Assembly: GCF_002105155.1 (NCBI RefSeq)
Contig: NW_019028990.1
Span: forward strand, 372,001-436,000
Origin: Lobosporangium transversale
Taxonomy: Eukaryota
Length of the DNA stretch: 64,000 nt
Direction: 5' to 3'
Below the pieces are notes generated by a model. The model was not told the DNA's origin and made no database searches. It was given only the letters and a program-made list of their open reading frames with translations. Within the stretch, counting starts at the first letter, position 1; every line of letters begins with the position of its first letter. The position numbers and the translations under genes are program-made. This document shows, in pieces, positions 21,233 to 64,000 of the stretch.

Positions 21233-21435
21233 ATTATATGTAATTGAATATTTGTAATGTAAGGCGGAAGAATAGGAGAAAGAGAAGGACAAGAGATTTT
21301 TTTTTTTTTTTTTAATGACTGCTACTAGATGTGGCTTTCAGAGACAACACAGATACACGTGATAAACCATCAAGGCTTCACACTGTGAGCGGAGAACACA
21401 TGGATCTTAGTCTCTTCGGCATCAATCCATTCATC

Positions 21436-21885
21436 ATGCTCGCCATTAAACTCGCGCGCCACGGCGTTAAAAACACTCCCTTCTTCCATATTGTGGTTCT
21501 GCAAAGTCGTTCCAAGCCTACGAGGAAACCCATTGAGCAACTCGGCACTTTCAACCCGATTCCCGATAAGGATGGTACCAAAGCAGTAACACTGAACTTT
21601 GAACGCGCAAAGTACTGGATCAGTGTCGGAGCAAAGCCAAGCGATACAGTTGCCCGTATTCTCACCAAGGTACTGTGATGGAGCATTCTCTTATAATGCT
21701 TGCGCTTATATCCTGGGGTACAACACTTTACAATAGAAGGAAACGCTTGATTTTATCAGACTAACACTTTTTCACTCCACACTGCCCATAACACATAGGC
21801 CGATATCATCCCGCCAAAGCCCAGGCCTGGCATGCCCAATCCTAGCAACTCTACCCCTATTAGACCACCTACTCAATCTGCATAA
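21436..21885 (+). CDS. MRPS16: Mitochondrial ribosomal protein S16 (bS16m), 2 exons (21436-21669, 21799-21885)
   Basis: MLAIKLARHG...PFFHIVV...KPIEQLGTFNPIP...LNFERAKYWISVGAKPSDTVARIL. Confidence 0.92.
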
Positions 21886-22322
21886 TTTCATCATAGAACA
21901 TCCGTACATTACACTTGTTTTTTTTTTCCCCTTTTTTTGTTTTTTGTTCATTCTTTCACTTGTATTAAAATCAATTGCTATCACAACGGATCAACGGATG
22001 CTCAAAGGAAGAAACAGAATCTGGATATTATTAATTTCTAAAGGAATTGACGTGATCTTGAATAAGTGGTGGAGGGCATCCCTTCCAAAGGCTCATGATA
22101 TCTTGAAGTTGATCCAGGGGTATGATGGTTGTACCATTTTTGGAAAGTACAGACTTGGTTGGTGGCTTCTAAAGGGCTTCTTGGATCAAGATTATTTGTA
22201 TCGTCTGTTGCCTATGTGAATGTTTTATCAGTGAGCACTATTGAAACAGATGAATGCTGCATTTGCCTCTTTCGCACGGCTCTCGTTTCTCTACAAGAAA
22301 CTAAAGTATTTGCGAGCGTTTT

Positions 22323-22441
22323 TGTAGGCTCGTCACCAGCCAGCCTGAGGACGAAGTTCACGTGCACATGCACGTACTCAAAGGCAAATGTGGCTTGCTC
22401 TTGCAGACACTTCTCTCTCAGGCTGGGGACCAAGCTTGACA
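22323..22441. repeat. 119-bp imperfect terminal hairpin (TGT...ACA) at the element end
   Basis: tgtaggctcgtcaccagc(cagc)ctgaggacgaagt pairs imperfectly with acttctctctcaggctggggaccaagcttgaca. Perfect core ccagcctgag/ctcaggctgg. Internal acgtgca-ca-tgcacgt palindrome. Confidence 0.7.
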
Positions 22442-22834
22442 TTTTGGCTGGAGGTCTCTTTTTTTAAATTTGAAAAAGTTTCCAAGTCGAAAACACGCCG
22501 CAGGAAAGGCTCTTTTTTTCTGCCATTCTCGCTGCAGAAAATGGCTTTTTTTTTTTCAAAGTCCAGACTAGGATATTGATTTGATCGAGAACGAACGAGG
22601 AATGAGAAAAAAGAATGGTATATTTCGCGTAAAAAGAGTCATCATGCTCTAATTAATCAATTATTTACCTTTAATTAAGATAGTGTGCTTAATAAGGTCA
22701 GAGAGATGGAAACGAGGATTGTGGAGTAGATCAAATGTTAGAATAATAAAATGTTAGAATAATAGATGGCAATGCAGATGATGGAAACAAGAGACGATTG
22801 GTAAAAATGAGGCTAGTGATTTGGGTGTGTGTGT

Positions 22835-23390
22835 AGGACCGTTTAAAAAGCGCCATCCGTTTGTCAAAAGGGCAAGTGGATAGTGATGGCTTCGTTCATA
22901 AAGGATGAACGATTGTAAAGGATACTCAATAGATGTGGTATTTTCATTACAGACAAAATTCCTTTCACTTGATTGACATTCGACTCTTTTCTTCATGCTT
23001 GAACCTCGGCGATCCTCCTGCATATGCGGTATTGATGCGAGTTTTTATGACATGCTGTCCCGCATGTTTTAAATATCTAGGTGTTGCCTTAACACTCTGA
23101 TCGTTGTTGATAACGAGCTCCTAAACTTTAAGCTTGACGTGTATGTCGCCTGGGACCATGGAACGGAGGAATGTGATATTGTCACTTTTCTCCGAGGTTT
23201 GATCGGTTTCTCTTCAAGCATGATCCAGTAAATATTATCAATCATCTCCTTGAATGATGCTTGCTTGATCGGATGCTCCTCTGATGTGACCTGGAATGGC
23301 TTGTCGGGCCCCAACACACAACTTATGGGTGGAAAGATAGGAATAGACAATAGAAACAACTTGCCACTTGCTTGAGAAAATTCTGATGCA
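22835..23390 (-). pseudogene. Decayed 3' fragment (REase part plus 3' flank) of a paralogue of the CRN gene
   Basis: GPDKPFQVTSEEHPIKQASFKEMID versus intact GPNELFQVTVSEKHPIKQAPFKEMID. Nucleotide similarity to ~25200-25830 continues past the stop codon. Frameshifted. Confidence 0.85.
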
Positions 23391-23894
23391 GCTGCGGCAA
23401 TCCGCTTGGTGTGGTCACTTCTCCTTGCTCAGGTTTATTGAATAGCGATATTTTAATTTATCTATTAGTGCTATATTACAAAACTGTGTCTGTGCCATTG
23501 TCATAAACAATGGCGAGTAAAAAGAAGTAAAAGAAGCGATCGCTACTTTTTCCTTGGTCCCTTATCCCTGCTTGACCTATTGGGCTTGTCGTCCTCCGCT
23601 TGCACTTTTTCTTTTATTTGATCCGCTGGGTTTGCTCAGCTCTTCCTTATTTTCCATAGCTGTAGCTTTATCGACAATTCACTTGATGTCCTCCTTGCCT
23701 GTGGTTCTTTGGGCTTGCTTCCTTCTCCCTCATCCCCCACAACTCGGGTCAATTCTGACTTCTTGAAGGACTCCCTTGCACTTTCAAGGAAGTTCAACAA
23801 GCTAATATTGAGTACGTCGTTTCTATTCGTTTGTCTTTGATGACAGGGGCTTCTTTGACTTTAGCTACCGAATAATCGTCCTGTTCGTGATAAG

Positions 23895-24775
23895 ACAACA
23901 TGATAAGGCAGCGTGATAAGTAAGGCCTAAACAACAGCAACAAGGATATGCCATTCGAGCAAAAGCCGAGAGAAGACGGTGATGAGAGGTGTTCTTTGAT
24001 GCAATTATGGCAAGTTGTATTGTGGGCATCCTTAATTCTTGACCTTATCGCCGATTTTTGATTGTACGGAACCAGGATAATATTTACCCTCCGATTCTAG
24101 TACAAAGACGATATCTGGTCCAGATGGGTTCTCTTTTGGAAACAAAAAAGAGCGAGATTAACTTGGATTCATGTATTGAGTCTTTGTTACAGTGAGTATC
24201 CAAGAATTCGTTCATTGTTATAATTCTGGAAGATTGAAATTAAACAAAGCGGGACTGAAATACTCAAAATGTGTGCCCTTTGTGCCAGACGTAGGGGAGT
24301 CATCGAGAACTTCTCGATATTCCTTGAAGCTTTGCCAGTTCTCTTAACCCAAGCAGGATCATAAATACAAAAGCCTATCCCGCAAGGAACTATGCAAATT
24401 CGTGCTAAATTCTCTGATAAACCCTCCAATCCATGAAAGAATGCTGATAATATTGGTCGCATAGTGTCGTCGTTATTAATAAACTGGTATTTAGCCTCCC
24501 CTCCCCACATCCTGCGCCTCGTTCAAAACAACCAAAAACATAGAGTTGCTTTGATGCCGCTCCGAAAGGACCCTGATTAGATTGTCGAACCAATCTTGCA
24601 GGAGCTTGTCAAGGCAATTAAAGCCAACTCCACCAAGCAATTCTGCTACTTTTGTGAAGAACGCTAGGAATAAATCTGTCCTGGATGGAACCGAGTTTCC
24701 TCAATGGACTTCTCCAAGGACCTGTGGACACACTTGCAATAGCATCCATTGGCTAGGCGTCATTCTACCTTCGGA
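23895..24775 (-). pseudogene. Decayed second-family CRN-type NTPase+REase cassette (mirror of 31920-32800)
   Basis: Reverse complement of 31920-32800. See that entry. Confidence 0.65.
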
Positions 24776-25363
24776 CAAGTAAAAAGGGTAAATTGGCCGA
24801 ACATACAACTAATATGATCTCATTGGCCACAGGTTGCCATCCCGTGCACGCGCACCATGGGGCTAAAACGACATTTATGTCTTTAGAGTGGAGCTGTCAT
24901 CCTAGCTCCCGGTAAACGTTTTGGCGCCCTGGATGATGATAATTGATAGGTCTTTCGCAAGTGGCAAGCATCCAGATGACAAAGCATACGAGAAAGGATA
25001 ATTTCCTATGCCAGCTGTCCTGGTGATAATAATATGGTTTTGGGTCTCATCATCAGACTCTCACTGGGTTCTCCACAGGATTCTTCATCTCTATCCGTTT
25101 TTACAAAACTCTTTGATAATAGTATCACAAAATCCTGCCTTTTCTTGCACACAAGATCGCATAATGATCACAGCTTTATAGTTCTAAATGCCCCAGTAGA
25201 AGGGAGGACGGATTAAACCGCTCTATTTATTCGTCTAGAAGGTAAGTGGATAATGATGGCTTCATTCATAAAGAATGAACCATTGTAAAAATTTCTCAAG
25301 GAATGGGTATAATGCTTTTTTTTAAAAAAAGACAAAATTTCATCCACTTGATTGGTATTCGAT

Positions 25364-27880
25364 TTAATTCTTCAGATTCGTACCGGCTGATCCTCCTGAA
25401 TATGCAGCTTCGATGTCGATTTTTATGACACGCTGTCTTACATGTTTTAAGCATTTATATGGCTTCTTGACGACCGTATTTCTGGCGGTAAGAAAGTTCT
25501 GAACTTTAAAATCGTTATATACGTCTCCTGGCACCACAAAATAGAGGAAAATATCATCACTTCCCTTCGACTTTGATCGGTCTCCCTTCGACTTTGATCG
25601 GTCTCCCTTCGACTTTGATCGGTCTCCCTTCGACTTTGATTGGTCTCCCTTCAAGCAGGGTCCAGTAATACAATCAATCATCTCCTTGAATGGTGCTTGC
25701 TTGATCGGATGCTTCTCTGATACTGTGACCTGAAATAGCTCGTTGGGTCCCAATGCAAAATCAATGCACGGAAATTTAGAATGTTCTGGTACAAACAACT
25801 TGCCAGCTGCTTGAGTGAGCCCTGATAATTCCTCTGAAGTCCGGATAAACACCTCTTCTGGATTTGCTGGAAAATCAAGAACTCCTGTTTCACCTGACTG
25901 GAGATCCCTAAAGGGAAATCTAATATCACCATGTCGAAATAAGCGATGAGCATAGATTTCAAACAGTGGGCCTTTAGCTATATCCTCTCCGCCTATGACA
26001 AGTCTCGCCAACACATCGACCCAAGTGTTATCTTTTATTTTGTCCATAATCTGTGATTCGACCCAACGAGATGCCCATACCAGGTGGAAGTGGAGGTGGT
26101 CAGAAGTAGGAACTCTATGGAGTAAACGACTAAATCCACTCGCATCTTTTCCTCGTGCAAAGAGCCTTAGAAGATTTGCTGGTTTCTTGAGTGTACTAAT
26201 GGCATCATTGACGCGGAATAACGCAGCTTCTTTAGCACGCTCAGTATTATTTTGATTTTTGGATAGTACATTGGCTGGACACTGTAGAACCTGTCTTGGC
26301 ACGCCCCCCAAGTAGTAAAAAAGCTCCTCCAAAAATGCTTCACTCACTACATGAAAAAACTTTACATTGGTTCTACATTCCTTAAGCTCAGCCAGACTCC
26401 AGAGTGACATATGATAGTAGTTATCTGGTGTATTTTCCTTGGTGAGTTCATCGTAATGCCCATAGAGAGTTCTTGGCGATGCTGAAAATATCGTCCTGGC
26501 TTTACCTGGTTGAGGATTTTTACCACTATCAACTAAATACCACGTTTCACGTTGGTCAAGGAAATCTTTGAAATCTACTCTCTCCCCATAACGTTGGCAA
26601 GTTGTTCCTCCATAAACATAACAACTGGTATGCTGCTCCTCTTGGAAAATAATAATCGGTGGATTTTCCTCATCGTGTTCGGCAAGGAGGCGGATGGCAA
26701 AATAGACCAAAAAGGCTGACTTCCCAATTCCAGGCGTTCCAGTGATAAAGAGGCGGTTCAAACGAGGTACTTCATGACGGGTACTTAATCCGGATGTAAT
26801 ATGGTCATAAAGCTCTTTATACTCATCTCTGATATAAAGATGCCTTGTTCCGGCAACAGGGAAGACACAACCCTCAGGGGCAGTCAATATTTTGGAATCC
26901 TTGATACCACCAGAATTTCGGAGCTCGCGAGCCACGCTAATAATGCTGTAGTAAATACTATCTACTGCTGTCTTCCCCATGTACGAAAGCAGCTTGACCC
27001 TCTCTTTCGAGTTTAGACGCGAGATGGCAGGCCTACCATCCACTATCCCTTTCGTTACAAGTCCTGCTTCTGTAATCGCGTCCATAAGAGTATCTCTATT
27101 CATGCTTGGACGAGCTTTTTTAGAGGGTGACTCTGATAAAGGAGATAGAGTGATCAAAGTCAATATTTTTGATTTATTGCACATCACTCTAAAATGATCA
27201 ATAACCAGATTCTCGGCCAAAAGCACTCACCAGAATCTCCATCTTGTTTTCTTTTCTGACCTAAGTATCAAAAGCGAATAATGAGAAAGAACGTTGAGTT
27301 ATCAAGACACAAACCAAATGGTGATATTATGCACATGGCCGTTTAAGATACAAACCAAGCTTCATCAGCTGAAAATATCAACAATCAGTCCATCAAGAGC
27401 CAAGGATATACCTCGCTGTGGTGGCTTGACAAAAACATGGATAGTTTCCTTTGGAAGTTCAGAGTTGAATATGTCCCCAAGCTCCCTTGATGCGACTGTA
27501 AGAGCCTCTTTTGACTCGATTTCTGACTCAAAGATGGCCTCGCCTTTGTCAGGGATGGAGACCTTGTAGAGGGTGAGATCTTTGGACTTAATGCTTGGAT
27601 CCACAGTAATATTGGGGTAGATTGCTTGCTTGAGCATCCCGACCGATTTATCGCAGAAAATCTCTACTGGGAACGACGTTGCTTCTCCCTCGACAACGCA
27701 GTTCAGCTGCAGCAGTGGGATGGCGCGCTTTTTTCGTTGTGGGCGCTGGTTTACTCTTTTTCGTTTATTGAGTATGGAGGCATCCTCAGGCTTATTTGCA
27801 GTCATTTTTATTTGTGCTTGGCTCTCTGTGGAATCATTTGCAGCCATGTTTTTTTGTGTTGAGCTCCTTGTGGTGGCCAT
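25364..27880 (-). CDS. Crinkler (CRN) family protein: ubiquitin-like header + P-loop NTPase + REase-fold nuclease. 3 exons (27880-27412, 27260-27231, 27132-25364), ~755 aa
   Basis: Header LQLNCVVEGEATSFPVEI...LKQAI...LTLYKVSIP...TIHVFVKPP. Walker A GTPGIGKS, Walker B-like WYLVDS, GGVPR, GPLFE, PCIDF...FQVTVSEKHPIK. Canonical splice sites join the 171-aa and 620-aa ORFs. Confidence 0.88.
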
Positions 27881-28237
27881 TGAAAATTAAGATGAGTGTG
27901 GTTGAAATGCAGGGAGAATGATGGGTAAATAGGCGAAGGTATATTCTATACTCTTTCACCCGTGGTCACGGTATGGAAACAATAATGAAAAATGTGTAAG
28001 GCAAAAAAAAAAAGAAGGAAAGGAAAAGAAAGGCAATAAATGAAGGCTTGGAATGAATAAAAGAGGTAAGTGGTGAAATATGAAAAAAGTGAAAAAAAAG
28101 GTAAAGGAGAGTGCGAAAATGAAGTGAAGCAAAGGAAAGAAGGACTTTATTTCAAGGTTAGGCGACGTGTGAGAAAATATTTTTTTCAAATCAGCCACGT
28201 GCCATTTTCTGGGTCATTGTGACGTAACAATCTTTAG

Positions 28238-28415
28238 CAGAGAGTCAAGCTTGTCACTCTTTTTGGTTAGTCCTTTTCAATTATAAGAATTTTGTTAAGT
28301 AAACCATTTATATTTGAAAGAGTCTAGCCAAAAAGAGCGACAAGCTTGACCCTCTGGCGCAAAGAACTCATTTCTCAGTCTCGTCACCAGCTTGAGGACG
28401 AAGTTCATGTGCACA
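28238..28415. repeat. Branched palindrome centre: 119-bp hairpin (28238-28356, 21-nt loop) plus 59-bp hairpin (28357-28415) related to the element terminus
   Basis: cagagagtcaagcttgtcactctttttggttag... pairs with ...ctagccaaaaagagcgacaagcttgaccctctg. 28380-28415 ctcgtcaccagcttgaggacgaagttcatgtgcaca matches 22329-22368. Confidence 0.8.
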
Positions 28416-28814
28416 CTAAAGATTGTCACGTCACAATGACCCAGAAAATGGCACGTGGCTGATTTGAAAAAAATATTTTCTCACACGTCGCCTAACCTTG
28501 AAATAAAGTCCTTCTTTCCTTTGCTTCACTTCATTTTTGCACTCTCTCCCTCTTCCTTTGCCCTTTTTTTTTCACTTTTTTCATATTTCACCCCAGTTTT
28601 GCTCCCATCAATTTTGCTCTTTTATTTATTCCAAGCCTTCATCTATTGCCTTTCCTTTCTTTTCCTTTCCTTTCCTTTTTTTTTTTTTTTGCCTTACACA
28701 TTTTTCATTTTTGTTTCCATACCGTGACCACAAGTGTGAAAGAGTATAGAATATACCTTTGCCTATTTACCCATCATTCTCCCTGCATTTCAACCACACT
28801 CATCTTAATTTTCA

Positions 28815-31331
28815 ATGGCCACCACAAGGAGCTCAACACAAAAAAACATGGCTGCAAATGATTCCACAGAGAGCCAAGCACAAAAAAAAATGACTGCAAA
28901 TAAGCCTGAGGATGCCTCCATACTCAATAAACGAAAAAGAGTAAACCAGCACCCACAACGAAAAAAGCGCGCCATCCCACTGCTACTGCTGAACTGCGTT
29001 GTCGAGGGAGAAGCAACGTCGTTCCCAGTAGAGATTTTCTGCGATAAATCGGTCGGGATGCTCAAGCAAGCAATCTACCCCAATATTACTGTGGATCCAA
29101 GCATTAAGTCCAAAGATCTCACCCTCTACAAGGTCTCCATCCCTGACAAAGGCGAGGCCATCTTTGAGTCAGAAATCGAGTCAAAAGAGGCTCTTACAGT
29201 CGCATCAAGGGAGCTTGGGGACATATTCAACTCTGAACTTCCAAAGGAAACTATCCATGTTTTTGTCAAGCCACCACAGCGAGGTATATCCTTGGCTCTT
29301 GATGGACTGATTGTTGATATTTTCAGCTGATGAAGCTTGGTTTGTATCTTAAACGGCCATGTGCATAATATCACCATTTGGTTTGTGTCTTGATAACTCA
29401 ACGTTCTTTCTCATTATTCGCTTTTGATACTTAGGTCAGAAAAGAAAACAAGATGGAGATTCTGGTGAGTGCTTTTGGCCGAGAATCTGGTTATTGATCA
29501 TTTTAGAGTGATGTGCAATAAATCAAAAATATTGACTTTGATCACTCTATCTCCTTTATCAGAGTCACCCTCTAAAAAAGCTCGTCCAAGCATGAATAGA
29601 GATACTCTTATGGACGCGATTACAGAAGCAGGACTTGTAACGAAAGGGATAGTGGATGGTAGGCCTGCCATCTCGCGTCTAAACTCGAAAGAGAGGGTCA
29701 AGCTGCTTTCGTACATGGGGAAGACAGCAGTAGATAGTATTTACTACAGCATTATTAGCGTGGCTCGCGAGCTCCGAAATTCTGGTGGTATCAAGGATTC
29801 CAAAATATTGACTGCCCCTGAGGGTTGTGTCTTCCCTGTTGCCGGAACAAGGCATCTTTATATCAGAGATGAGTATAAAGAGCTTTATGACCATATTACA
29901 TCCGGATTAAGTACCCGTCATGAAGTACCTCGTTTGAACCGCCTCTTTATCACTGGAACGCCTGGAATTGGGAAGTCAGCCTTTTTGGTCTATTTTGCCA
30001 TCCGCCTCCTTGCCGAACACGATGAGGAAAATCCACCGATTATTATTTTCCAAGAGGAGCAGCATACCAGTTGTTATGTTTATGGAGGAACAACTTGCCA
30101 ACGTTATGGGGAGAGAGTAGATTTCAAAGATTTCCTTGACCAACGTGAAACGTGGTATTTAGTTGATAGTGGTAAAAATCCTCAACCAGGTAAAGCCAGG
30201 ACGATATTTTCAGCATCGCCAAGAACTCTCTATGGGCATTACGATGAACTCACCAAGGAAAATACACCAGATAACTACTATCATATGTCACTCTGGAGTC
30301 TGGCTGAGCTTAAGGAATGTAGAACCAATGTAAAGTTTTTTCATGTAGTGAGTGAAGCATTTTTGGAGGAGCTTTTTTACTACTTGGGGGGCGTGCCAAG
30401 ACAGGTTCTACAGTGTCCAGCCAATGTACTATCCAAAAATCAAAATAATACTGAGCGTGCTAAAGAAGCTGCGTTATTCCGCGTCAATGATGCCATTAGT
30501 ACACTCAAGAAACCAGCAAATCTTCTAAGGCTCTTTGCACGAGGAAAAGATGCGAGTGGATTTAGTCGTTTACTCCATAGAGTTCCTACTTCTGACCACC
30601 TCCACTTCCACCTGGTATGGGCATCTCGTTGGGTCGAATCACAGATTATGGACAAAATAAAAGATAACACTTGGGTCGATGTGTTGGCGAGACTTGTCAT
30701 AGGCGGAGAGGATATAGCTAAAGGCCCACTGTTTGAAATCTATGCTCATCGCTTATTTCGACATGGTGATATTAGATTTCCCTTTAGGGATCTCCAGTCA
30801 GGTGAAACAGGAGTTCTTGATTTTCCAGCAAATCCAGAAGAGGTGTTTATCCGGACTTCAGAGGAATTATCAGGGCTCACTCAAGCAGCTGGCAAGTTGT
30901 TTGTACCAGAACATTCTAAATTTCCGTGCATTGATTTTGCATTGGGACCCAACGAGCTATTTCAGGTCACAGTATCAGAGAAGCATCCGATCAAGCAAGC
31001 ACCATTCAAGGAGATGATTGATTGTATTACTGGACCCTGCTTGAAGGGAGACCAATCAAAGTCGAAGGGAGACCGATCAAAGTCGAAGGGAGACCGATCA
31101 AAGTCGAAGGGAGACCGATCAAAGTCGAAGGGAAGTGATGATATTTTCCTCTATTTTGTGGTGCCAGGAGACGTATATAACGATTTTAAAGTTCAGAACT
31201 TTCTTACCGCCAGAAATACGGTCGTCAAGAAGCCATATAAATGCTTAAAACATGTAAGACAGCGTGTCATAAAAATCGACATCGAAGCTGCATATTCAGG
31301 AGGATCAGCCGGTACGAATCTGAAGAATTAA
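28815..31331 (+). CDS. Crinkler (CRN) family protein, second copy. 3 exons (28815-29283, 29435-29464, 29563-31331), ~755 aa
   Basis: Same motifs as the mirror copy, with 3 amino-acid differences near the N-terminus. Introns gtatat..ttag and gtgagt..tcag, both phase 1. The spliced frame reads KPPQR-GQKRKQDGDS-ESPSKKAR. Confidence 0.88.
31043..31133 (+). repeat. 21-bp coding minisatellite (gaagggagaccgatcaaagtc x ~4.3; KGDRSKS repeats). Mirror at 25562-25652.
   Basis: Directly visible tandem copies. Confidence 0.95.
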
Positions 31332-31919
31332 ATCGAATACCAATCAAGTGGATGAAATTTTGTCTTTTTTTAAAAAAAAGCATTATACCCATTCCTTGAG
31401 AAATTTTTACAATGGTTCATTCTTTATGAATGAAGCCATCATTATCCACTTACCTTCTAGACGAATAAATAGAGCGGTTTAATCCGTCCTCCCTTCTACT
31501 GGGGCATTTAGAACTATAAAGCTGTGATCATTATGCGATCTTGTGTGCAAGAAAAGGCAGGATTTTGTGATACTATTATCAAAGAGTTTTGTAAAAACGG
31601 ATAGAGATGAAGAATCCTGTGGAGAACCCAGTGAGAGTCTGATGATGAGACCCAAAACCATATTATTATCACCAGGACAGCTGGCATAGGAAATTATCCT
31701 TTCTCGTATGCTTTGTCATCTGGATGCTTGCCACTTGCGAAAGACCTATCAATTATCATCATCCAGGGCGCCAAAACGTTTACCGGGAGCTAGGATGACA
31801 GCTCCACTCTAAAGACATAAATGTCGTTTTAGCCCCATGGTGCGCGTGCACGGGATGGCAACCTGTGGCCAATGAGATCATATTAGTTGTATGTTCGGCC
31901 AATTTACCCTTTTTACTTG

Positions 31920-32800
31920 TCCGAAGGTAGAATGACGCCTAGCCAATGGATGCTATTGCAAGTGTGTCCACAGGTCCTTGGAGAAGTCCATTGAGGAAAC
32001 TCGGTTCCATCCAGGACAGATTTATTCCTAGCGTTCTTCACAAAAGTAGCAGAATTGCTTGGTGGAGTTGGCTTTAATTGCCTTGACAAGCTCCTGCAAG
32101 ATTGGTTCGACAATCTAATCAGGGTCCTTTCGGAGCGGCATCAAAGCAACTCTATGTTTTTGGTTGTTTTGAACGAGGCGCAGGATGTGGGGAGGGGAGG
32201 CTAAATACCAGTTTATTAATAACGACGACACTATGCGACCAATATTATCAGCATTCTTTCATGGATTGGAGGGTTTATCAGAGAATTTAGCACGAATTTG
32301 CATAGTTCCTTGCGGGATAGGCTTTTGTATTTATGATCCTGCTTGGGTTAAGAGAACTGGCAAAGCTTCAAGGAATATCGAGAAGTTCTCGATGACTCCC
32401 CTACGTCTGGCACAAAGGGCACACATTTTGAGTATTTCAGTCCCGCTTTGTTTAATTTCAATCTTCCAGAATTATAACAATGAACGAATTCTTGGATACT
32501 CACTGTAACAAAGACTCAATACATGAATCCAAGTTAATCTCGCTCTTTTTTGTTTCCAAAAGAGAACCCATCTGGACCAGATATCGTCTTTGTACTAGAA
32601 TCGGAGGGTAAATATTATCCTGGTTCCGTACAATCAAAAATCGGCGATAAGGTCAAGAATTAAGGATGCCCACAATACAACTTGCCATAATTGCATCAAA
32701 GAACACCTCTCATCACCGTCTTCTCTCGGCTTTTGCTCGAATGGCATATCCTTGTTGCTGTTGTTTAGGCCTTACTTATCACGCTGCCTTATCATGTTGT
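31920..32800 (+). pseudogene. Decayed second-family CRN-type NTPase+REase cassette
   Basis: Across frames: SQWMLLQVCPQV, FLVVLNEAQ (Walker-B-like), RPILSAFFHGL...ICIVPCGIG, then FLFPKENPSGPDIVFVLE...VQSK (PD-(D/E)xK-like). Stops and frameshifts. Family assignment is from my recollection of Mortierella CRN C-termini. Confidence 0.65.
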
Positions 32801-33304
32801 CTTATCACGAACAGGACGATTATTCGGTAGCTAAAGTCAAAGAAGCCCCTGTCATCAAAGACAAACGAATAGAAACGACGTACTCAATATTAGCTTGTTG
32901 AACTTCCTTGAAAGTGCAAGGGAGTCCTTCAAGAAGTCAGAATTGACCCGAGTTGTGGGGGATGAGGGAGAAGGAAGCAAGCCCAAAGAACCACAGGCAA
33001 GGAGGACATCAAGTGAATTGTCGATAAAGCTACAGCTATGGAAAATAAGGAAGAGCTGAGCAAACCCAGCGGATCAAATAAAAGAAAAAGTGCAAGCGGA
33101 GGACGACAAGCCCAATAGGTCAAGCAGGGATAAGGGACCAAGGAAAAAGTAGCGATCGCTTCTTTTACTTCTTTTTACTCGCCATTGTTTATGACAATGG
33201 CACAGACACAGTTTTGTAATATAGCACTAATAGATAAATTAAAATATCGCTATTCAATAAACCTGAGCAAGGAGAAGTGACCACACCAAGCGGATTGCCG
33301 CAGC

Positions 33305-33744
33305 TGCATCAGAATTTTCTCAAGCAAGTGGCAAGTTGTTTCTATTGTCTATTCCTATCTTTCCACCCATAAGTTGTGTGTTGGGGCCCGACAAGCCATT
33401 CCAGGTCACATCAGAGGAGCATCCGATCAAGCAAGCATCATTCAAGGAGATGATTGATAATATTTACTGGATCATGCTTGAAGAGAAACCGATCAAACCT
33501 CGGAGAAAAGTGACAATATCACATTCCTCCGTTCCATGGTCCCAGGCGACATACACGTCAAGCTTAAAGTTTAGGAGCTCGTTATCAACAACGATCAGAG
33601 TGTTAAGGCAACACCTAGATATTTAAAACATGCGGGACAGCATGTCATAAAAACTCGCATCAATACCGCATATGCAGGAGGATCGCCGAGGTTCAAGCAT
33701 GAAGAAAAGAGTCGAATGTCAATCAAGTGAAAGGAATTTTGTCT
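33305..33744 (+). pseudogene. Decayed 3' fragment of CRN paralogue (mirror of 22951-23390)
   Basis: GPDKPFQVTSEEHPIKQASFKEMID. Similar to ~30860-31365. Confidence 0.85.
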
Positions 33745-35030: not shown

Positions 35031-36015
35031 TAACTGTTATTGCTTTTTTCTTATATTCTAAATAGAAAACTGAAATGGGTCTTTTCGTCAATAAAATGAA
35101 AACTCATGAAAATTCAGAAGTATCTAGGATGGCCAAGGATATTGTCAAGAGTTGGAAGGCACAGGTTATGAAGGACACTCCATCATCGACAGCTTCCACT
35201 GCTTCAACCAAGTCCGAAAGCACTACATCATCATCAAAGCCCAAAGTAGATACAAAGCCTTCGCCCGCTCAAATTCAAAATCCATCAAGGGAGGGATCTT
35301 CAACAGCAAGCTCACCAAGGACACCGACGGATACACCCAGAAGTCGTACAGTTCGAACGGATGGTATGCGTATTAAAACGACAGGAGATGATGTTCGTGA
35401 TAAGTGTATTGAGATGCTTTATGAAGCTCTCGGATTCAATTCCAATGCAGGTAAAAAAAAAAAAAAAAAAAAAGAATGTTTCACGAACAGAATATCCGAA
35501 GGTTCTTGGAACTCTCCTTATTATTATGATTGCTCTCTCATTTTAAGTATACTTTACTTTTTTACTTATTAATGTGCATAGAGTCAGAACGTTTGCTTTC
35601 AAAGGCCACTAGTATTGAGGCGACTGTGTTCAAGAAGCTCTCAGTAGATAATAAGCCTAGCAAAGACTATAAGTCTAAGATCCGAACCTTCTTTATGAAC
35701 TTGAAAGATAAGAACAATCCAAAGTTGCGTGAAGCTGTGGTAGATGGAGATGTGGCAGTGGAGGACTTTTGTGAATATACGACTCAGGATATGGCTTCTG
35801 CTGAGGCCAAGGCGCGTGATCGAGCGATCGAAATAGAAAATATGAAGAATGCCAAAGGAGCAGAGGAACAACAGGCAGAGACGGACATGTTCAAGTGTGG
35901 CAAGTGCAAGGGAAGGAAGACTCGTTATTATCAGATGCAAACTCGGTCAGCTGATGAACCGATGACAACTTTTGTGACATGTATTAATTGTGGTAACCGC
36001 TGGAAGTTTTCATAA
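34506..36015 (+). CDS. DST1: Transcription elongation factor TFIIS, 4 exons
   Basis: N-terminal domain (KTEMGLFVNK...IVKSWK), central domain (VRDKCIEML, YKSKIRTFFMNLKDKNNPKLR), and Zn ribbon CGKC...QMQTRSADEPMTTFVTCINCGNRWKFS. Confidence 0.96.
34936..34995 (+). repeat. (gaaagaaagaag)n purine-rich tandem repeat followed by polyA in a TFIIS intron
   Basis: Direct observation. Confidence 0.85.
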
Positions 36016-50429: not shown

Positions 50430-51756
50430 ATAGAGAAATAGTCTGCATCTTGATTCTTGATCTAGAGAAGGAAAAATAAATTCTAATGCAAAATCCAATT
50501 TGTTCATGGCGTATGTGTGTTTGTTTGGTTTGTTTATTCGCACACAGAGCTAAGGAAGCATAGCGTATTATGCACTATGCACAGAAAAGGATAATGTCCT
50601 CAGTAAATTTTTTTTTTTGGGTAAATATTCATCTCACGATACGATAGAAGAATTTATTTTTGTTCTTTAACAAATTCATGTTGAAGAGAACAACACAACA
50701 TGCTTTGCCTCTTTACGACTTTTAATTGTCCGGAGAAGGTTGCTTCCTGAAATGGCAAGGCAGGTTATGACAATTCATTCTAGCGGCTCATCAAAGCGAA
50801 TGGCCAATGTCACCATTTGAAGTGGAGCACAAAGCCAAAGATCTATTTAGACTGAGTATCCCTTCAAGAAGCAAGTCTATTTGATCCTTTTGAATTTATA
50901 TGAAAAAGTATTGTCTGACCAAGATAAAGTTTGAACAGCATTCATTTTTTTGAGTGCTCTCTTGGCCCAGGGCTAGAAGATTGGGATAGTTATAGATAAA
51001 AGGAGCGTCCAAGCCCATGCACAGCAGCGGGAGTCAAGGTTTGCTGTAAATGAATCAACATCATCAAGTGAATTGATTAATAGGCATACCTGTTGCCATC
51101 TATAGATCTCTAGTCCAGTGCCGAAGAGGCATGATCAAGGCTACCTCGTATAGTTTTCATTTACTTTGTATGAGTTTAATTGGTGCAAGTTGCAAGCAAC
51201 TGTCGCCAGTAATAGCTAGGATTTTTTTTTACTCAAGGCGGAAACGCGTGTGTCCTAGGTGTCCAACCAATGAAGGTGTTTCAATGTTCCAAGTTTTTTT
51301 TTTTTTTTTTTTTTTTCCGTAGCCTCAGAGAAAAAATTTATGCATGCTGGGAGATGGAACAATCTCTTCTCGATGTATGCATGCAATCCATCCAAGCAAA
51401 GCATGCAAATAATGGGCTCAGTCGAAAGTATACTTTGTCCTTCTCTTCTCTTCTCTTCTCTTCTCTTCTCTTCTTCTTTTCTTTCTTTCTCTCCTCACAC
51501 AATAGCGTCTATCGCTCTTGAGACAATCTTTCCTCCCCTCTTTTTTTTTTTTTTTTTTTTCTGGCACGATTCCTCGATCAGACATGTAAGTGCTTACGCT
51601 GGAGTTGGAGAATATGAAAAGAATATAAATAAAAAAATAAAAACATTATTCATCTACAATATCGCCTACAAACACACCACTCTCATGCTTACATAGTTCT
51701 TGTTCTACTGAAATGAATAGATCAAAGCTGAGAAAGAAGAGAAAAGATCGACAGCC

Positions 51757-53613
51757 ATGCTTGGTGGTATTTACCCCTCCTCACGAAGTGTCCTCTCGCC
51801 ATCAATAGCTCTGAAACTCTTTACTATCTACACCGAGAACGCTCGCGACTATGGCAAAGAGATCGCCTTGGAACTATGTCTGGATGCAGTTGCCGTGCTA
51901 TCTCGAATCCATCGGTCTGTGAGGAAGGCTCTTATCACTTCAACTCGCAATGAGGACAAAACGCTATGCCAAAACGTTGCCACAGCTTACTACGACCTTG
52001 CTCGGTCATTTGAGCGTCTGGGTCAGCCAGATGAAGCTCGAAACAATGACCGAAAAGCAGAAAAGTGGGGATACGTTCAAGGAAGGAACGTTGTCCGCCC
52101 AAGGCCACCATCAATTAGTAGCTCTATCAATGACCTCAACGACAAAGACAGCATCAGCTACAACGATACTAAAAGGCGAGAAAGTACCTGTATTTTTAAC
52201 AGCGAACCTGAAAAGCCGACTAAAATAGTAGAACCCACCACAACAGACGGCACCACAATTATTCCAATACATATATTTAGTCGCGATGTAGCTCCTACGG
52301 CCATCAGATATAGCTTGCCAGATGCGGGTACTCGTCTGAATGATATCGGTCAGCTTGTGTATTGTCTCAGTTTGCTTCCTGGTGCGCCTATCCCTACTAC
52401 TGAACTTAGTGGTGAGGAACGAGAATGGTCTTTGGCCATGTCCAAGGACCGAAGCGAGCAAGAGCGGCTATACAACTTGGCTTCAAATGTGATTACAATG
52501 TTCATCAGTGATGGGATCAAGACCGAGGCTACTGTTACTGAAGTTGTGTCTCTAGCTCCAGTTCTTAGTCGTGATCAATTCAAAGCATTGCTCGCGGCTT
52601 TTACCAACGACATTCAGAAGAGCACCGTTTTGGATACCTATTTATTGGAAGGATTGGGTCAGTTGATGCAGCATGCTCCACTCGGCTACCTTGACTCGGA
52701 TGATATTATCAAAATTCTCGATACTCTCACTTTCTGCTTAAAAGAAGTTAATAGTCAATCCGATGACTACCTTCATCATCTATCTACTGCAGTGTCACGA
52801 GCCCTTGATGTAATGGTTGATAATCAAGTCAAAGGTTTAAAACCAGAGCAACTCCATGAGCCATTAGTTTCATATTTGAAGGGTCTAGAAGATAGTTCAG
52901 ATCCCCATCTAATGTATCATGCAGCCTATGCTTTCCAGGCACTTCAATATATCCCAGACGATGGAACAACGGTACAAGCAATGCTTCGACGAAGATCATC
53001 TGTGTTCCGAGGGACAGTTGGGATAGTGAGTGCGGTCGATGATTTTGATGTGTATGCCTTTTTGGATGAATTAAGTATTATCCAGAAAGAGCTTCCGATG
53101 GTGACAGATGTTATTAATTTGAGTCTGCATGTTTATAATGGGGCAGCATCGCTGTATGAGAGTAAAGAGACTATCAGACAGTGTATACAAGAAGGACTCA
53201 GTTTGAGTCAAAAGACAGCATGGTATCCAGCATTGCGTGGGGCTGATGCTCTAATCCAGACTGGCGAGTTCACCAAATTCAAGACTTTTGTGTGTGAGGT
53301 ACCTTGTCGAAGAGAGCCATCCTTCCTGTGGGGGCTATGTCAACGATTGGGGCAGATTGCAGCTGATACTCAATGGCCTACAGATGCCCGACAGGATGCA
53401 GTCGCATTCCTTGGTGAGATCTACAAGAATGACAACGATTGGGGCCATTATGTCCACATTAAGCAATGGATCCTTGCAATATTGAAGAGGTTGATGTGGT
53501 TGTCAAAAGAGAGTCTGCTGGGTGAGTAGAGAAGATGGCTTTAGCTTTGAAAAAAATTTACCCCGTTGTGTGAGAAGTCAGCTAATGATAGTGCATTGTG
53601 ATCCTCCAATTTT

Positions 53614-53651
<38 letters not shown>

Positions 53652-56600
53652 CTGAAAAGTTTTTTGTGGAGGATCTTACTAAGAATGGGGATGCTAACAA
53701 GCAGCAGCTATTTAGTGATTATTTTAAGGATCCTGAGGTTCGACATCCCGTCGTTATCGCACTCCCCCCTTCTACATCTCTATCATTACTCGACCGCGTC
53801 CAAAAGGAGCCTGATATCGAGAATAACCTGCGCCAGCTCAAGAGACAACGAATGCGGAGTAGAGATGACCAGAGCTTTTACATTCCACAGTTTTCTCGAG
53901 GCTCTGCTCGTTCCAAGAATGAAGGCGCATGCTTGCTGATGGACGAGGTAAAGGAATTTCTGAATGGCGATCAAAAAGTGCTACTCGTGCAAGGCACTTC
54001 AGGAGCAGGAAAATCAACATTCAGTCGTACACTAGAGTACAATCTGTGGGAAGCATACCAAAACAAGAACGATAGGATCCCACTCTACATCGATTTACCG
54101 AGCATTGAAAACCCAAATCGAGGTTTGGTCACAAAGCTGCTGCGAAGGTATGGATTCACAGAGGCCCAGATCACTGAGCTGAGAATGACTCGATCATTCA
54201 TCTTGATCTGTGATGGGTATGATGAATGCAGGCAGCACAACAACTTGTATGTCACCAATCAACTGAACCAACCTGGTGAATGGATGGCTCAGATGATCAT
54301 CACCTGCCGCAGTGAGTATCTTCGATCAGACAGCCGAGATTACTTTCAGCCTATGGCCCGAAAGCGCCAAGCAGGCACTTCATTGTTCCAAGAGGTTGTA
54401 ATTGTACCATTCTCGGATGATCAGATCAATAATTATATCAAACAATATGTGGCCATCATGAATCCACCATGGCCAGTCAAAGAGTATCAGCGTGTATTCG
54501 AGGTGGTGCCCGGCCTACGGAAGCTTGTGGAGAATCCTTTTTTCCTATCGCTGTCACTTGAAGTGCTGCCGCGGATGATAGGCCCGAATCAAGACGTCTC
54601 CAAGACAGAAGTCAAGTGTATATCATTTTATGACCAATTCGTGGAGTTGTGGCTGGAGCGAGGCAAGAAGCGAGTAGGCGATTCAATAGAGCCAGAGGAT
54701 AGGAAGATGTTCCAGAAATTGTCGGACGAAGGATTTGAACAGAATGGGATTAGGTACTTGACAAGCTTGGCCGTAGCCATCTATAGACATCAACGTGGCG
54801 ATCCTGTGGTGGACTACTCTTCGTTCAAGCACAAGGGGACATGGAAGGAAGAGTTCTTTAGCAAAGAGAATGGAGCATCCCTTCTAAGAGAGGCATCCCC
54901 CTTGAGTCGCGTGGGCACTCAGGCTCGCTTTATTCATCAATCTATCCTGGAGTACAGTCTGGTGCGAGCGATCTTTGAGCCGCAGCAAGTGATAAACGCT
55001 TTTGCAAGTGGTAGGGGAACAGCATTGACTCCAAACCCTCGTCGGCAGAGTATCAGTTCAGTATACAGCTTCGATTCTGAGAGCAAGGAGGCCAATCCAT
55101 TCCAGGCTGATGAGAACTCTCCATTGGTATGGAAGAACTTTGTGAACGATCCATTTTTCTCACAGTTTCTGGAAGACCGAGCCCGATTGGAACCGCTGTT
55201 CAGACAGCAACTCTATGGCTATATAGAACTCTCGAAGGAGGATAAAAAGTGGCGGACAGCAGCAGCCAATGCGATAACGATCCTGGTTCGAGCAGGCGAG
55301 TCATTTCTTGGAGCAGACCTGAGAGGCATTCAAATTCCAGGAGCGGACCTGAGCGGCGGTATGTTTGGAGGTACCAAGTTACGAGGAGCAGACCTTCGAA
55401 AGGTCAATCTGCAACAAGCTTGGTTACGAGATGCTGACATGAGGGGCGCTCGGGCAGAAGGGATACAGTTTGGTGAATGGCCCTTTTTTACAGAAAGTGC
55501 TAAAGTAAGGACAGGAACATATTCTCCTGATGGCGAGATGCTCGCCATAGCTATCGATGATGGCACAATCAATGTCTACTATACATTGACATGGGAGAAG
55601 CTTCACACTTTAAAGGGTGTTACTGGGTCCATACTTGAATTTTTGCCCGATAACAAACATCTCGTTTGCTTGAGTTCTCATCAAACGGTGGAAATTTGGA
55701 ATGCAATATTAGGCCAATCAGTAAAAGTGATGTATGGCCATAGCGGAGCTATCCATTGTATGGGGTACTCACCAGATGGGACCCAGGTTGCCTCTTCCAG
55801 CGACGATGGCTCAGTTCGAGTATGGAATGCACTGTCTGGTATTTTAATATATGAGCTGAAGGAGCACACTGGCGCTGTATTCAGTTTGATGTATTCACCT
55901 GATGGGAGACAGATTGCAACTGGAGGTAAAGACAAGACCATAAGGCTGTGGGAAACATTATTAGGACAGCCGATTCGGACACTACAGGACCTTAAATATG
56001 AGGTTTACAAGATTGCGTATTCACCTAATAGCCAGGAAATCATTTCTTATGCTCGTAAAGACTACTCGGTAGATGTATGGGATGTCGGGTCGGGCCAAAG
56101 AAGATGGACCTTGGTGCATACTGGTCATGTCGAAGGTGCTCAATATTCGCCTAGCGGGGATTATGTCGCTTCATTCGCCGGTGCGGTGGCGATCCAGTGG
56201 GATATGCACACAGGGGAAGCTATTCATACCTTTGATAGGCACCCCAGTTCGATCACCGATCTAAAATATTCGCCAAATGGGGAAGAGATAGCTACCTGCA
56301 GCAAGGATGGTATAGTGCGGTTATGGGATGCGCAATCGGGACAACTAATAAGCACTCTTCGTGGCCACTCTGGTGTGATTAGCAGTTTGGTGTATTCACC
56401 AAGCAGTCAGCAAATTGCATCGTTTGGTGATGACGGGATGGTGCGGTTATGGAATACACAGCTAAAGCAGACTTGTCCGGACCAGAACAGACATACGAGA
56501 GCGATTAACTGTATCAGAATATCGCCAGATGGGCGGTACGTTGCTTCCTCTAGCTACGATGGCACAATTCGCGTGTGGAATGCACGGACAGGACAGTTTC

Positions 56601-57877
56601 TTCATGTTTTGCAGGATATAAGATCAGCAAACGACATCAAGTATTCGGCTGATGGTCAGTTGATTGGTTCTTGCCATACCTCCTCGTTTTTGCGCCTTTG
56701 GAATAGTCAATCAGGTCAAGTCGCCCATACCATAGAATGGGAAGAAGCACCACTCGATGGATGTTGGGCCATGGATTTCTCACCCGTGGATCATAGAATT
56801 GCATGTGGACATGCATGTGGGAAAGTGAGTGTATGGGATACGAAAACAGGGAATTGTATACGCATTTTACAGAGCCCGAAACTAAAGCCAGGCAAAGACG
56901 TGTTCCGTGTGCTATATTCACCCGATGGCCGTAAAATCGCTTCATGGGAGGTAAATGGCAGAATCAGAGTCTGGTCAGCGGAATCATGGGACCTTTTGTG
57001 TGAATTCCTGAGTCCAAGATCGTGTGGCCCTGCAATGGCGTTCTCGCCTAACAGCGAAAGACTAGCATTTTTTCATGATGACATTAAGCTACGAATATGC
57101 GAGTTAAAGTCGGGAGAAGTCTATTGCGAAATACCGGTTTATGACACTCCAATAGCGATAATCTACTCTTCGTGTGGCCTACAGGTGGCTATTGGAACCG
57201 AAGAAGGGTCAATAAGCCTGGTGGATACGGAAGCAAAAGTAATTACGCATACGCTTGAAGGACATACCAGCCTTATCACCTGCATGGTTTATTCTCCTGA
57301 TGAGCAGTACATCGCCTCTGGCAATTATGACAGGACATTACGACTGTGGAATACAGAAACAGGTCAATGCTTGTATACTATCTCACTCGAGATCGGATTT
57401 GTTAGCGTAATTTTATGGTACGTCTCCGAAGAGGGTTACTTCCTGTTGGTGGGGTGCGATGATTCTTCTCTTGAGATGTATCAGCTTAGGAAAGTGGATG
57501 GTCAACTTCAGCATCACTTGAAGTGGGGCACGAGGCAAAGGGCTCTTAATGTTAGCAACCTGTGTATCTTCGATATGATTGGATTGAGTGAATCTATTAA
57601 ACAGCTCCTGCTGCAGCGCGGAGCAATAGTTGACCCAACACGACGCTCGACGCCCGAAGAAGAAGATAGCTGGGTTAGTACGGTTAGATCAACGGAATCC
57701 AAGGCCAAGTTATATTTGCGCAAAAAAGAACTCAAGTCTAAAGCTACAGAATCAAAACCTGGATCGAGTAATGAACAGCGTCTCGTTAACCTAGTATGCA
57801 AAGGATGCGATGTGATACCAACGGTTGTCTGCGGTTGTACTACCAAAACTACCAAAACTACCAAAACTACCGGATAG
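51757..57877 (+). CDS. NLR-like protein: helical/ARM-like N-terminus + NACHT + pentapeptide repeats + WD40. 2 exons (51757-53521, 53652-57877), ~1996 aa
   Basis: Walker A GTSGAGKS, Walker B FILICDGYDE, ITCRSEYL, FIHQSILEY, AAANAITIL, GADLRGIQIPGADLSGG pentapeptides, many GH...YSPDG...WD repeats. Confidence 0.92.
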
Positions 57878-59165: not shown

Positions 59166-59975
59166 TCAGGCTTGAGTACGAGTCTTGAGATCAACCCAAA
59201 AGTGAAGCCTTTTCTTCACATCTTCAGGACTAGTACGAGGATGAACCATTTCATTTCTCAAAGCACGAATACTCCTCCATTCCTCATAAATTGCTCTATC
59301 CATGTTGATCTCTTTCAGAAACGTCTCCTCTACTTCCTGACGAATCTCACTCCTCCGTCTTGCAAGCTCATTTAAACATTCGACCGTTTCTGCCTTCTCC
59401 TTTTGCTTCAACTGTTCACGACTGCTGCCGTTTTTAGAACCAATGTCTTTGAGACTGTACTTTGATTCTATTGCCTTGATCTTTTCTCGTCTCAAACGAT
59501 CCATACGCTGTTTGGTCTGGCTTTTGACTTTAGAATTAATCCAAGCGAATGCCTCAGAAATGGTGAGTACTATTTTGAATACGCAAGGACAAGCCATGTT
59601 GTTGTTGCCATCAATTCTTTTAATTCTCAAATTCATGTTGTTTTCGTTTTCGCTTCCCTCACGGATCTCGTTGAACTGGACATCATGTTCAGAATCTACT
59701 GTTGTTATTGTTGTTGTTGCTTCTCTATTGTATCCGTAACTGGTACATGTAAGGCCCTTGGCGTAACGAATACAAGTCAAGTTCAACAATGGTGGAGGTT
59801 TCTGTTTAAAGTCTCCTGGGATTATGGTTATGGCTTCAGAATGGACCGTCAACTGGTTATTGGCGTCGTTTGCTTTTGAATGAAAGCCAAAAGCTATCCG
59901 AGTCTTCGAAAGAGGTCGCATTAGGGTGAGGGTCCAGCTAGCTTGTAACTTCGTTCTCGACAAAGCCCAAGACAT
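59166..59975 (-). CDS. Hypothetical 269-aa single-exon protein with C-terminal RNxxxH (HEPN-like) motif
   Basis: ATG-initiated ORF with a basic, acid-poor N-terminus and a helical charged C-half ending EWRSIRALRNEMVHP. Confidence 0.6.
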   Translation of the reverse strand: MSWALSRTKLQASWTLTLMRPLSKTRIAFGFHSKANDANNQLTVHSEAITIIPGDFKQKPPPLLNLTCIRYAKGLTCTSYGYNREATTTITTVDSEHDVQFNEIREGSENENNMNLRIKRIDGNNNMACPCVFKIVLTISEAFAWINSKVKSQTKQRMDRLRREKIKAIESKYSLKDIGSKNGSSREQLKQKEKAETVECLNELARRRSEIRQEVEETFLKEINMDRAIYEEWRSIRALRNEMVHPRTSPEDVKKRLHFWVDLKTRTQA

Positions 59976-62710: not shown

Positions 62711-64000
62711 TGTAGGCTCGTCACCAGCCAGCCTGAGGACGAAGTTCACGTGCACATGCACGTACTCAAAGGCAAATGTGGCTTGCTCTTGCAGACACTT
62801 CTCTCTCAGGCTGGGGACCAAGCTTGACATTTTGGCTGGAGGTCTCTTTTTTTAAATTTGAAAAAGTTTCCAAGTCGAAAACACGCCGCAGGAAAGGCTC
62901 TTTTTTTCTGCCATTCTCGCTGCAGAAAATGGCTTTTTTTTTTTTTTCAAAGTCCAGACTAGGATATTGATTTGATCGAGAACGAACGAGGAATGAGAAA
63001 AAAGAATGGTATATTTCGCGTAAAAAGAGTCATCATGCTCTAATTAATCAATTATTTACCTTTAATTAAGATAGTGTGCTTAATAAGGTCAGAGAGATGG
63101 AAACGAGGATTGTGGAGTAGATCAAATGTTAGAATAATAAAATGTTAGAATAATAGATGGCAATGCAGATGATGGAAACAAGAGACGATTGGTAAAAATG
63201 AGGCTAGTGATTTGGGTGTGTGTGTAGGACCGTTTAAAAAGCGCCATCCGTTTGTCAAAAGGGCAAGTGGATAGTGATGGCTTCGTTCATAAAGGATGAA
63301 CGATTGTAAAGGATACTCAATAGATGTGGTATTTTCATTACAGACAAAATTCCTTTCACTTGATTGACATTCGACTCTTTTCTTCATGCTTGAACCTCGG
63401 CGATCCTCCTGCATATGCGGTATTGATGCGAGTTTTTATGACATGCTGTCCCGCATGTTTTAAATATCTAGGTGTTGCCTTAACACTCTGATCGTTGTTG
63501 ATAACGAGCTCCTAAACTTTAAGCTTGACGTGTATGTCGCCTGGGACCATGGAACGGAGGAATGTGATATTGTCACTTTTCTCCGAGGTTTGATCGGTTT
63601 CTCTTCAAGCATGATCCAGTAAACATTATCAATCATCTCCTTGAATGATGCTTGCTTGATCGGATGCTCCTCTGATGTGACCTGGAATGGCTTGTCGGGC
63701 CCCAACACACAACTTATGGATGGAAAGATAGGAATAGACAATAGAAACAACTTGCCACTTGCTTGAGAAAATTCTGATGCAGCTGCGGCAATCCGCTTGG
63801 TGTGCTCACTTCTCCTTGCTCAGGTTTATTGAATAGCGATATTTTAATTTATCTATTAGTGCTATATTACAAAACTGTGTCTGTGCCATTGTCATAAACA
63901 ATGGCGAGTAAAAAGAAGTAAAAGAAGCGATCGCTACTTTTTCCTTGGTCCCTTATCCCCGCTTGACCTATTGGGCTTGTCGTCCTCCGCTTGCACTTTT
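62711..64000 (-). mobile_element. Putative CRN-carrying element, copy C (same orientation as A, runs off the window)
   Basis: Matches 22323-~23610 with about 4 substitutions and a T-run 3 nt longer, by eye. Upstream flank unrelated. Confidence 0.75.
63226..63781 (-). pseudogene. Decayed CRN 3' fragment in copy C
   Basis: ORF 63460-63750 is nearly identical to 23069-23359. Confidence 0.85.

Follow-up and report, generated by a model that had tools for sequence, protein, structure and literature searches.

A young, multicopy repeat family that resembles a mobile element, ends sharply and carries an intact gene for a Crinkler ATPase-nuclease in an apparent Mortierellaceae fungus

Crinkler-RHS-type (CR) proteins that combine an ATPase with a nuclease are thought to descend from transposon enzymes, and the reviews that describe them give a transposon ancestry and speak of 'mobile CR-effector-like elements', with no element ends in their accessible text (PMC5289972, PMC11342252). 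Genes of this type have been described in or beside mobile DNA. AACRNL of fish is a Crinkler-like gene of a non-pathogen that multiplied between terminal inverted repeats and was moved by hAT and mariner (PMC12957317), Medea1 of Tribolium is linked to a composite Tc1 according to a title cited in PMC11342252, and Crinkler-type (CRN) genes of Phytophthora infestans were moved with helitrons (PMC5289972). Here, a further locus is analyzed, which lies in a 64,000-nt stretch of Lobosporangium transversale (contig NW_019028990.1, positions 372,001 to 436,000; hereafter the window). Within this window, three copies of a ∼6 kb unit are present, named A, B, and C, and the only intact gene of the unit encodes a Crinkler-type ATPase-nuclease. 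The unit represents a real, young repeat family of many copies that resembles a mobile element and ends sharply, and it adds a new form to the Crinkler genes known from mobile DNA.

The protein encoded by the unit has the organization of the CR proteins, i.e., a PF20147 header, an AAA+/STAND ATPase and a predicted restriction-fold nuclease, but unlike in the accounts given by the reviews its gene resides in a young repeat unit of many copies, the terminus of which is defined to the base. AACRNL resembles it as a Crinkler-like gene multiplying between terminal inverted repeats, whereas it encodes an ADP-ribosyltransferase, is present in few copies and has hAT and mariner as identified partners; here an ATPase-nuclease is found in tens of copies with no identified partner. 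Medea1 and the helitron-associated genes of P. infestans share the position in or beside mobile DNA and the tandem arrangements, but are tied to Tc1 or a helitron, and no such enzyme was found in the copies studied here. With respect to the DNA ends, Ginger2/Tdd elements and their miniature derivatives are similar in their TGTNR first bases, their AT-rich flanks and a repeat near the 40-bp lower range, as Ginger-type elements have terminal inverted repeats of 40-270 bp, a 4-bp target-site duplication and an integrase-like DDE transposase (PMC2836005). They differ in that no integrase-like transposase was seen in A or B and in that the repeat is asymmetric here.

Self-BLAST of the window showed that positions 22951-28002 of A match positions 33744-28691 of B in inverted orientation over 5054 columns with 99.8% identity, and that positions 22323-23609 of A match the whole of C visible in the window with 99.5% identity. 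The seven columns that differ between A and C correspond to four substitutions and one homopolymer length. All nine columns that differ between A and B lie above position 27700, within 300 bp of the spacer, and ∼4.7 kb are identical. A and C start at the same base, the first of TGTAGGCTCG (TGTAG), at 22323 and 62711, and the AT-rich flanks in front of the two starts are unrelated (GCGTTTT versus TACAAAA). B stops short, and ∼630 bp of the terminus are missing from it; ∼59 bp at the gene-5' end of B, including an inverted motif, are missing from A. When the left flank of A was compared with the right flank of B, no similarity was found. The original prediction of a ∼6 kb unit that is present three times, has a defined terminus and is set between conserved genes was thus borne out, the flanking genes being identified by Pfam as those for ribosomal protein S16 and TFIIS (Table 1).

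Next to the spacer (28002-28691), A and B show clearly more divergence than along their 5-kb arms, a pattern suggestive of gene conversion within the palindrome or of assembly polishing across the repeats. An assembly artefact may lie behind the perfect identity of the A/B arms, the centre or the right junction of B.

Among public sequencing runs, part of the unit is present in seven of the eight runs listed. Contigs of four runs (the DNA runs X1, X4, and X6, and run X7) were compared with positions 21400-28400. A 2998-nt contig crosses the left junction of A with 0 differences in X1, X4, and X6, at a depth of 112, 9.1, and 10.2, respectively, and thereby rules out an assembly artefact at this junction. 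Compared with the flank, the depth of single contigs in X4 and X6 was ∼9-11x near 22921, 18x at 23038, 23-29x over the remnants described below and 28-36x in the gene; these ratios are rough and do not translate into copy numbers, and all three DNA runs seem to come from a single strain, which may be that of the window itself. Since contigs inside the unit reach ∼10-36x the depth of the flank, the family is genome-wide, and its size is estimated at ∼20-35 copies in the genome. The depth climbs stepwise toward the gene, and therefore many of the copies are partial. The raised depth in X4 and X6 covers coding and non-coding parts, in agreement with the claim that the family is not confined to the local copies. 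Run X8, which carries the same species label, contains next to none of the unit's words; a strain that lacks the family, another type of library or a mislabel are possible.

Most of the depth at 22336 comes from copies without 4 nt that are present in A and C, and at 24297 and 24791-24795 the majority of copies in the genome contain additional DNA that is missing from A and B. The site at 24297 coincides with the point where the protein P0028 continues. Most copies thus differ from A, B, and C, which appear to be a minor, deleted subfamily. The earlier statement that the element has no transposase stands for A and B, in which none was seen, but does not extend to the family, as most copies carry the extra DNA. 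Among the 12 indel rows listed out of 87, seven coding rows represent five events, all of which preserve the reading frame, and four of five non-coding indels are not multiples of three. Of the coding substitutions listed (13 of the 40 rows listed, out of 442), 11 change the amino acid, which is near the neutral expectation. As far as these variants go, the frame-keeping indels show that the gene probably matters to the amplified copies; the high proportion of amino-acid-changing substitutions speaks against strong selection.

The gene contains two introns of 151 and 98 nt with GT..AG borders on the minus strand, which are matched by joints in run X7 only. Removal of both introns yields 2268 nt encoding 755 aa without an internal stop, in agreement with the protein length given in the original prediction, and no other intact coding open reading frame (ORF) with a family match was found in A or B, in line with the proposal that the Crinkler gene is the sole intact gene. 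X7 is read as a presumed RNA run solely from its GT..AG joints, none of the eight listed runs being recorded as RNA, and the spliced transcripts in X7 may come from other copies of the family.

The Crinkler/ubiquitin-like header PF20147 was identified by Pfam in exon 1 (E 4.2e-16, 60 bits versus a cutoff of 24.6). The N-terminal region contains the basic clusters KRKR and RKKR and is devoid of a hydrophobic stretch; as signal peptides are often missing from Crinkler-type proteins (PMC5289972), the latter does not separate the readings discussed below. The model of exon 3 (predicted local distance difference test, pLDDT, 84) gave matches to AAA+ ATPases, in line with an AAA+/STAND P-loop NTPase with Walker A and Walker B motifs. 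TnsC, Cdc6/Orc1, ClpA and proteasomal ATPases were tied at Z 9.5-9.7, with TnsC at Z 9.7 (root-mean-square deviation 5.6, 235 aligned) and Cdc6/Orc1 at Z 9.6. The C-terminal domain (model pLDDT 81) gave a low best VIA match of only Z 5.2 (root-mean-square deviation 4.2, 121 aligned), and no match at E ≤ 0.001 with Foldseek. Of the best 20 VIA matches, 13 are restriction enzymes by title, and TnsA is not among the matches listed, an absence which leaves TnsA possible. A restriction-endonuclease fold is likely for this domain.

Residue conservation was scored over 100 homologs of at least 400 aa, counting non-gap rows. Walker A K137 and Walker B D201 (exon-3 numbering) are kept in 89/97 and 97/100 homologs, and the E, D, Q and T of the nuclease in 76/83, 74/77, 72/80 and 73/77, respectively, so that the putative catalytic residues of the protein are likely intact, as judged from the alignment. 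The protein family is large (8211 clusters at E ≤ 0.001), and its Atlas neighbours are eukaryotic and include Crinkler and RHS clusters. A transposase domain was found in none of the 31 long homologs scanned, and no longer fused homologs were found among 4977 candidates, which is weak evidence. The 755-aa protein is a further member of the known class of Crinkler ATPase-nucleases. A 21-bp tandem repeat (25562-25652 and 31043-31133) encodes a Lys/Ser-rich insert of low model confidence in the nuclease domain, and homologs carry other repeat inserts at different places, e.g., L001:4057-4269.

The non-coding half of the unit is filled with remnants of at least two Crinkler families. Three broken remnants lie downstream of the gene, all on the gene's strand, and self-BLAST detected an old tandem duplication inside the unit. 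The P-loop-like piece also follows the gene in homolog P0001, and this arrangement is therefore older than A, B, and C.

It had been proposed that both ends of the unit carry hairpins of ∼119 bp. This was not confirmed, as the central palindrome at 28238-28356 (z-score −9.8) arises from the right end of A paired with the left end of B, and each of these two ends folded singly gave no significant hairpin (z +1.1 and +0.7). The left end of A and C does fold alone (z −2.9), with a loop of 51 nt. Motif comparison did recover the motifs described as common to the ends (caagcttgac and others). Motif M1 of ∼39 bp opens the terminus and returns in inverted orientation at the far end of B, ∼70 bp from the end. 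Because M1 is inverted and M2 recurs as a diverged direct repeat, the ends look like inverted repeats that are imperfect and asymmetric and have their modules rearranged. Rfam found no ribozyme, and the idea of M1 as a ribozyme was abandoned; for the central palindrome Rfam gave only sub-threshold matches to microRNA hairpins. In three contigs in each of the three DNA runs, the right hairpin arm is followed by GAGCCTACA and then by differing sequence (agreement 0.59), which suggests putative further termini of a symmetric TGT...ACA type in some members of the family. Variants with shorter terminal loops, at ∼10-12x depth and lower, and variants with a full right terminus were also observed.

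Outside the window, protein alignment identified homologs encoded at seven metagenome loci, five of which are shorter than 2 kb, together with two weak viral matches restricted to the P-loop and no prokaryotic genome locus. L001 is the only long close locus and is Mortierellaceae-like. The distant homolog at L007 (25% identity) ends at a stop codon inside a perfect 26-bp inverted repeat (L007:2253-2470), a single suggestive case. This inverted repeat is followed by several AAAGTGTC-like repeats and looks like a transposon end or a miniature element. A tandem duplication of ∼200 bp precedes the Crinkler genes of the related loci L001 (1931-2275), L002, and L003. The terminal DNA pattern had 0 matches in metagenome contigs and one 2-mismatch match among nine loci. 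A literature search, with most subscription papers outside its reach, gave no article that describes an element of this kind from Mortierellaceae.

The reading favoured here, held with about even confidence, is that of a non-autonomous inverted-repeat DNA transposon that is moved in trans and has the Crinkler gene as cargo. Movement would depend on a conventional transposase whose gene lies elsewhere or in longer copies, probably a DDE-type enzyme that would recognise the TGTAG repeats, and short end-only derivatives would exist. A, B, and C would form a minor subfamily with internal deletions and a local spread, recent duplication or homogenisation would account for the A/B arms, and the gene would stay intact because its nuclear nuclease would benefit the element or the host. 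This reading is supported by the shared start of A and C between unrelated AT-rich flanks, by M1 at the gene-5' end of B in inverted orientation to the terminus, and by the match of TGTAG, at one end only, to the TGTNR pattern known from the ends of Ginger transposons and Gypsy long terminal repeats (PMC2836005). The raised contig depth over coding and non-coding parts, the suggested symmetric TGT...ACA ends of some members, the Crinkler remnants, the extra DNA in most copies and the 31 of 31 long homologs without a transposase domain speak for it as well, and the Crinkler-type genes that travel with hAT, mariner, Tc1 or helitron elements provide a precedent. Several observations weigh against it. 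No partner transposase was found in A or B, no target-site duplication was readable, and no copy with both flanks is present in the 64-kb window. The inverted repeat is asymmetric; in B its outer TGT is missing and ∼70 bp of conserved sequence lie beyond it, and in A it is absent. According to the accessible text of a fungal survey, no Ginger is listed among the DNA transposons of Mortierella elongata (PMC5751038). The depth ratios are rough and come from what looks like one strain, and the frame-keeping coding indels favour a self-mobilising element at least as much.

In such a self-mobilising element the Crinkler protein would act as its own mobilising enzyme. The AAA+ ATPase would form assemblies on DNA in the manner of TnsC or Cdc6, the restriction-fold nuclease would cleave either the terminal repeats or the target, and the insertion would be completed by host repair. 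A and B contain no intact gene besides the Crinkler gene, the cargo of the unit derives entirely from Crinkler genes, and family transcripts in X7 are spliced. The Walker and nuclease residues are present and kept in 72-97 of 77-100 aligned homologs, TnsC ties with Cdc6/Orc1 and other AAA+ proteins as a match of the ATPase, and the basic clusters without a hydrophobic N-terminal stretch, the frame-keeping indels and the inverted repeat adjoining the distant L007 homolog point in the same direction. However, the protein contains no strand-transfer domain, and in Tn7 both TnsA and TnsC need the DDE protein TnsB. A pair of such an ATPase and a restriction-fold nuclease is not known to carry out strand transfer. 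The near-neutral substitutions also argue against this explanation, L001 has no comparable ends within ∼2.6 kb upstream and 1.3 kb downstream, and the published Crinkler-type genes in elements travelled, as far as the accessible texts describe, by conventional transposons. Mobilisation by the Crinkler protein is considered rather unlikely. With respect to Tn7, TnsA is a restriction-fold nuclease, the ends of Tn7 begin with TGT, and TnsC shares the top rank in the structural comparison of the ATPase with proteasomal, Cdc6/Orc1 and Clp ATPases. The locus differs from Tn7-like elements in that no TnsB-type DDE protein was seen in A or B and none is fused in the 31 homologs, and in that ATPase and nuclease are fused here to a eukaryotic header, with TnsA not among the matches listed. 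That the family represents a eukaryotic transposon family with TGTAG ends caught amplifying, with a Crinkler AAA+-restriction-fold nuclease as transposase and thus a one-protein analogue of TnsC plus TnsA without DDE chemistry, is judged unlikely. A gene that is intact, spliced and kept in frame, and that encodes an ATPase resembling TnsC and Cdc6, is compatible with the own-enzyme and the cargo readings alike.

A further explanation is a non-autonomous Helitron2-like rolling-circle element that would have taken up Crinkler genes by read-through beyond its 3' end. The 5' T, the 5' hairpin involving the repeat (with its long loop of 51 nt), the asymmetric inverted repeat, the shared orientation of several gene fragments, M2 near both ends and T-rich flanks in two of three readable cases agree with this, and a joint of the promoter end to 22431, at ∼4x depth in X1 with the strand not shown, hints at head-to-tail junctions. 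The 3' repeat of Helitron2 is 8-15 bp long, lies 20-30 bp from the end and is followed by a hairpin (PMC3627910), whereas here the repeat is ∼39 bp long and ∼70 bp from the end and neither right end makes a hairpin. In addition, the flank of C is A-rich, run contigs suggest symmetric TGT...ACA ends, and neither A nor B revealed a RepHel sequence, which makes a Helitron2-like origin improbable. Alternatively, an effector or toxin family was expanded by recombination, gene conversion and fold-back duplication beside a small, unrelated inverted-repeat element, and the long unit never transposed. The clustering of 9/9 A/B differences near the spacer with ∼4.7 kb identical, the stepwise climb in depth that points to many partial copies, and the old tandem duplication inside the unit fit such a history. 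But the end of A and of C is identical to the base and is followed by at least 1.29 kb in common, with unrelated flanks and a setting between conserved genes, and the non-coding parts were amplified along with the gene. Recombination alone explains the A/B arms and not the shared A/C end, and as an account of the whole family it is regarded as very improbable.

Table 1. Features of the unit and its surroundings in the window.
Feature	Position	Strand	Basis
Left flanking gene, ribosomal protein S16, first coding frame	21319..21678	+	Pfam PF00886, E 3.5e-24; intron 21667-21797 in X7
Copy A (right boundary approximate)	22323..28290	- (gene on minus)	Left junction: 2998-nt contig in 3/3 DNA runs, 426-nt contig in X7, 0 differences
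Terminus TGTAG with motif M1, inverted-repeat-like end; 4-nt insertion that most copies lack	22323..22369	+	Motif comparison; depth at 22336
Terminal hairpin like a miniature inverted-repeat unit with decayed right end	22323..22440	+	Fold z −2.9; 18-bp arms, 83%; variants in runs
Motif M2 (caagcttg and T-rich tail), recurring as diverged direct repeat at far end of A and B	22431..22480	+	Motif comparison
Remnant: nuclease end and 3' region of same Crinkler family	22835..23410	-	69-79% to intact gene
Remnant: second Crinkler-like ATPase-nuclease family, internal deletion near 24297	23797..24749	-	tblastn with P0028, 66-93% in pieces; Atlas neighbours including Crinkler clusters
Remnant with P-loop-like stretch	24855..25207	-	Also follows gene in homolog P0001
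Intact Crinkler gene, 755 aa; exons 27880-27412, 27260-27231, 27132-25364	25364..27880	-	Pfam, X7 joints, spliced translation, fold models, residues
Upstream region of gene; part more diverged between A and B than arms	27881..28237	-	A/B comparison
Central 119-bp imperfect palindrome, head-to-head A/B junction, not hairpin of either end	28238..28356	.	Self-comparison, folding
Copy B, inverted, truncated at 33744; intact gene 28815-31331	28308..33744	+	Sequence comparison
Second M1 copy at gene-5' end of B, inverted versus gene-3' terminus, without outer TGT, deleted in A	28377..28415	+	Motif comparison
Right flanking gene, TFIIS, later exons	35066..36015	+	Pfam PF07500, PF01096, PF08711
Copy C, terminus of A, unrelated flank, runs off window	62711..64000	-	Sequence comparison

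The nearest named proteins are from Mortierellaceae, the closest of them labelled Lobosporangium transversale. Between A/B and C, a large NLR-like gene with ARM-like and P-loop-like parts and many WD40 repeats was observed at 51721-57877. A minus-strand ORF of 288 aa at 59166-60032 gave weak Pfam hints only, including a HEPN-like 2-5A ribonuclease (E 0.048).

The family combines an end defined to the base with tens of young copies and a gene that is intact and spliced, and its host is apparently a Mortierellaceae fungus. Therefore, the question whether a Crinkler protein is still a transposase becomes directly testable. If the gene is only cargo, the family still shows the multiplication and shuffling of Crinkler genes in early-diverging fungi.

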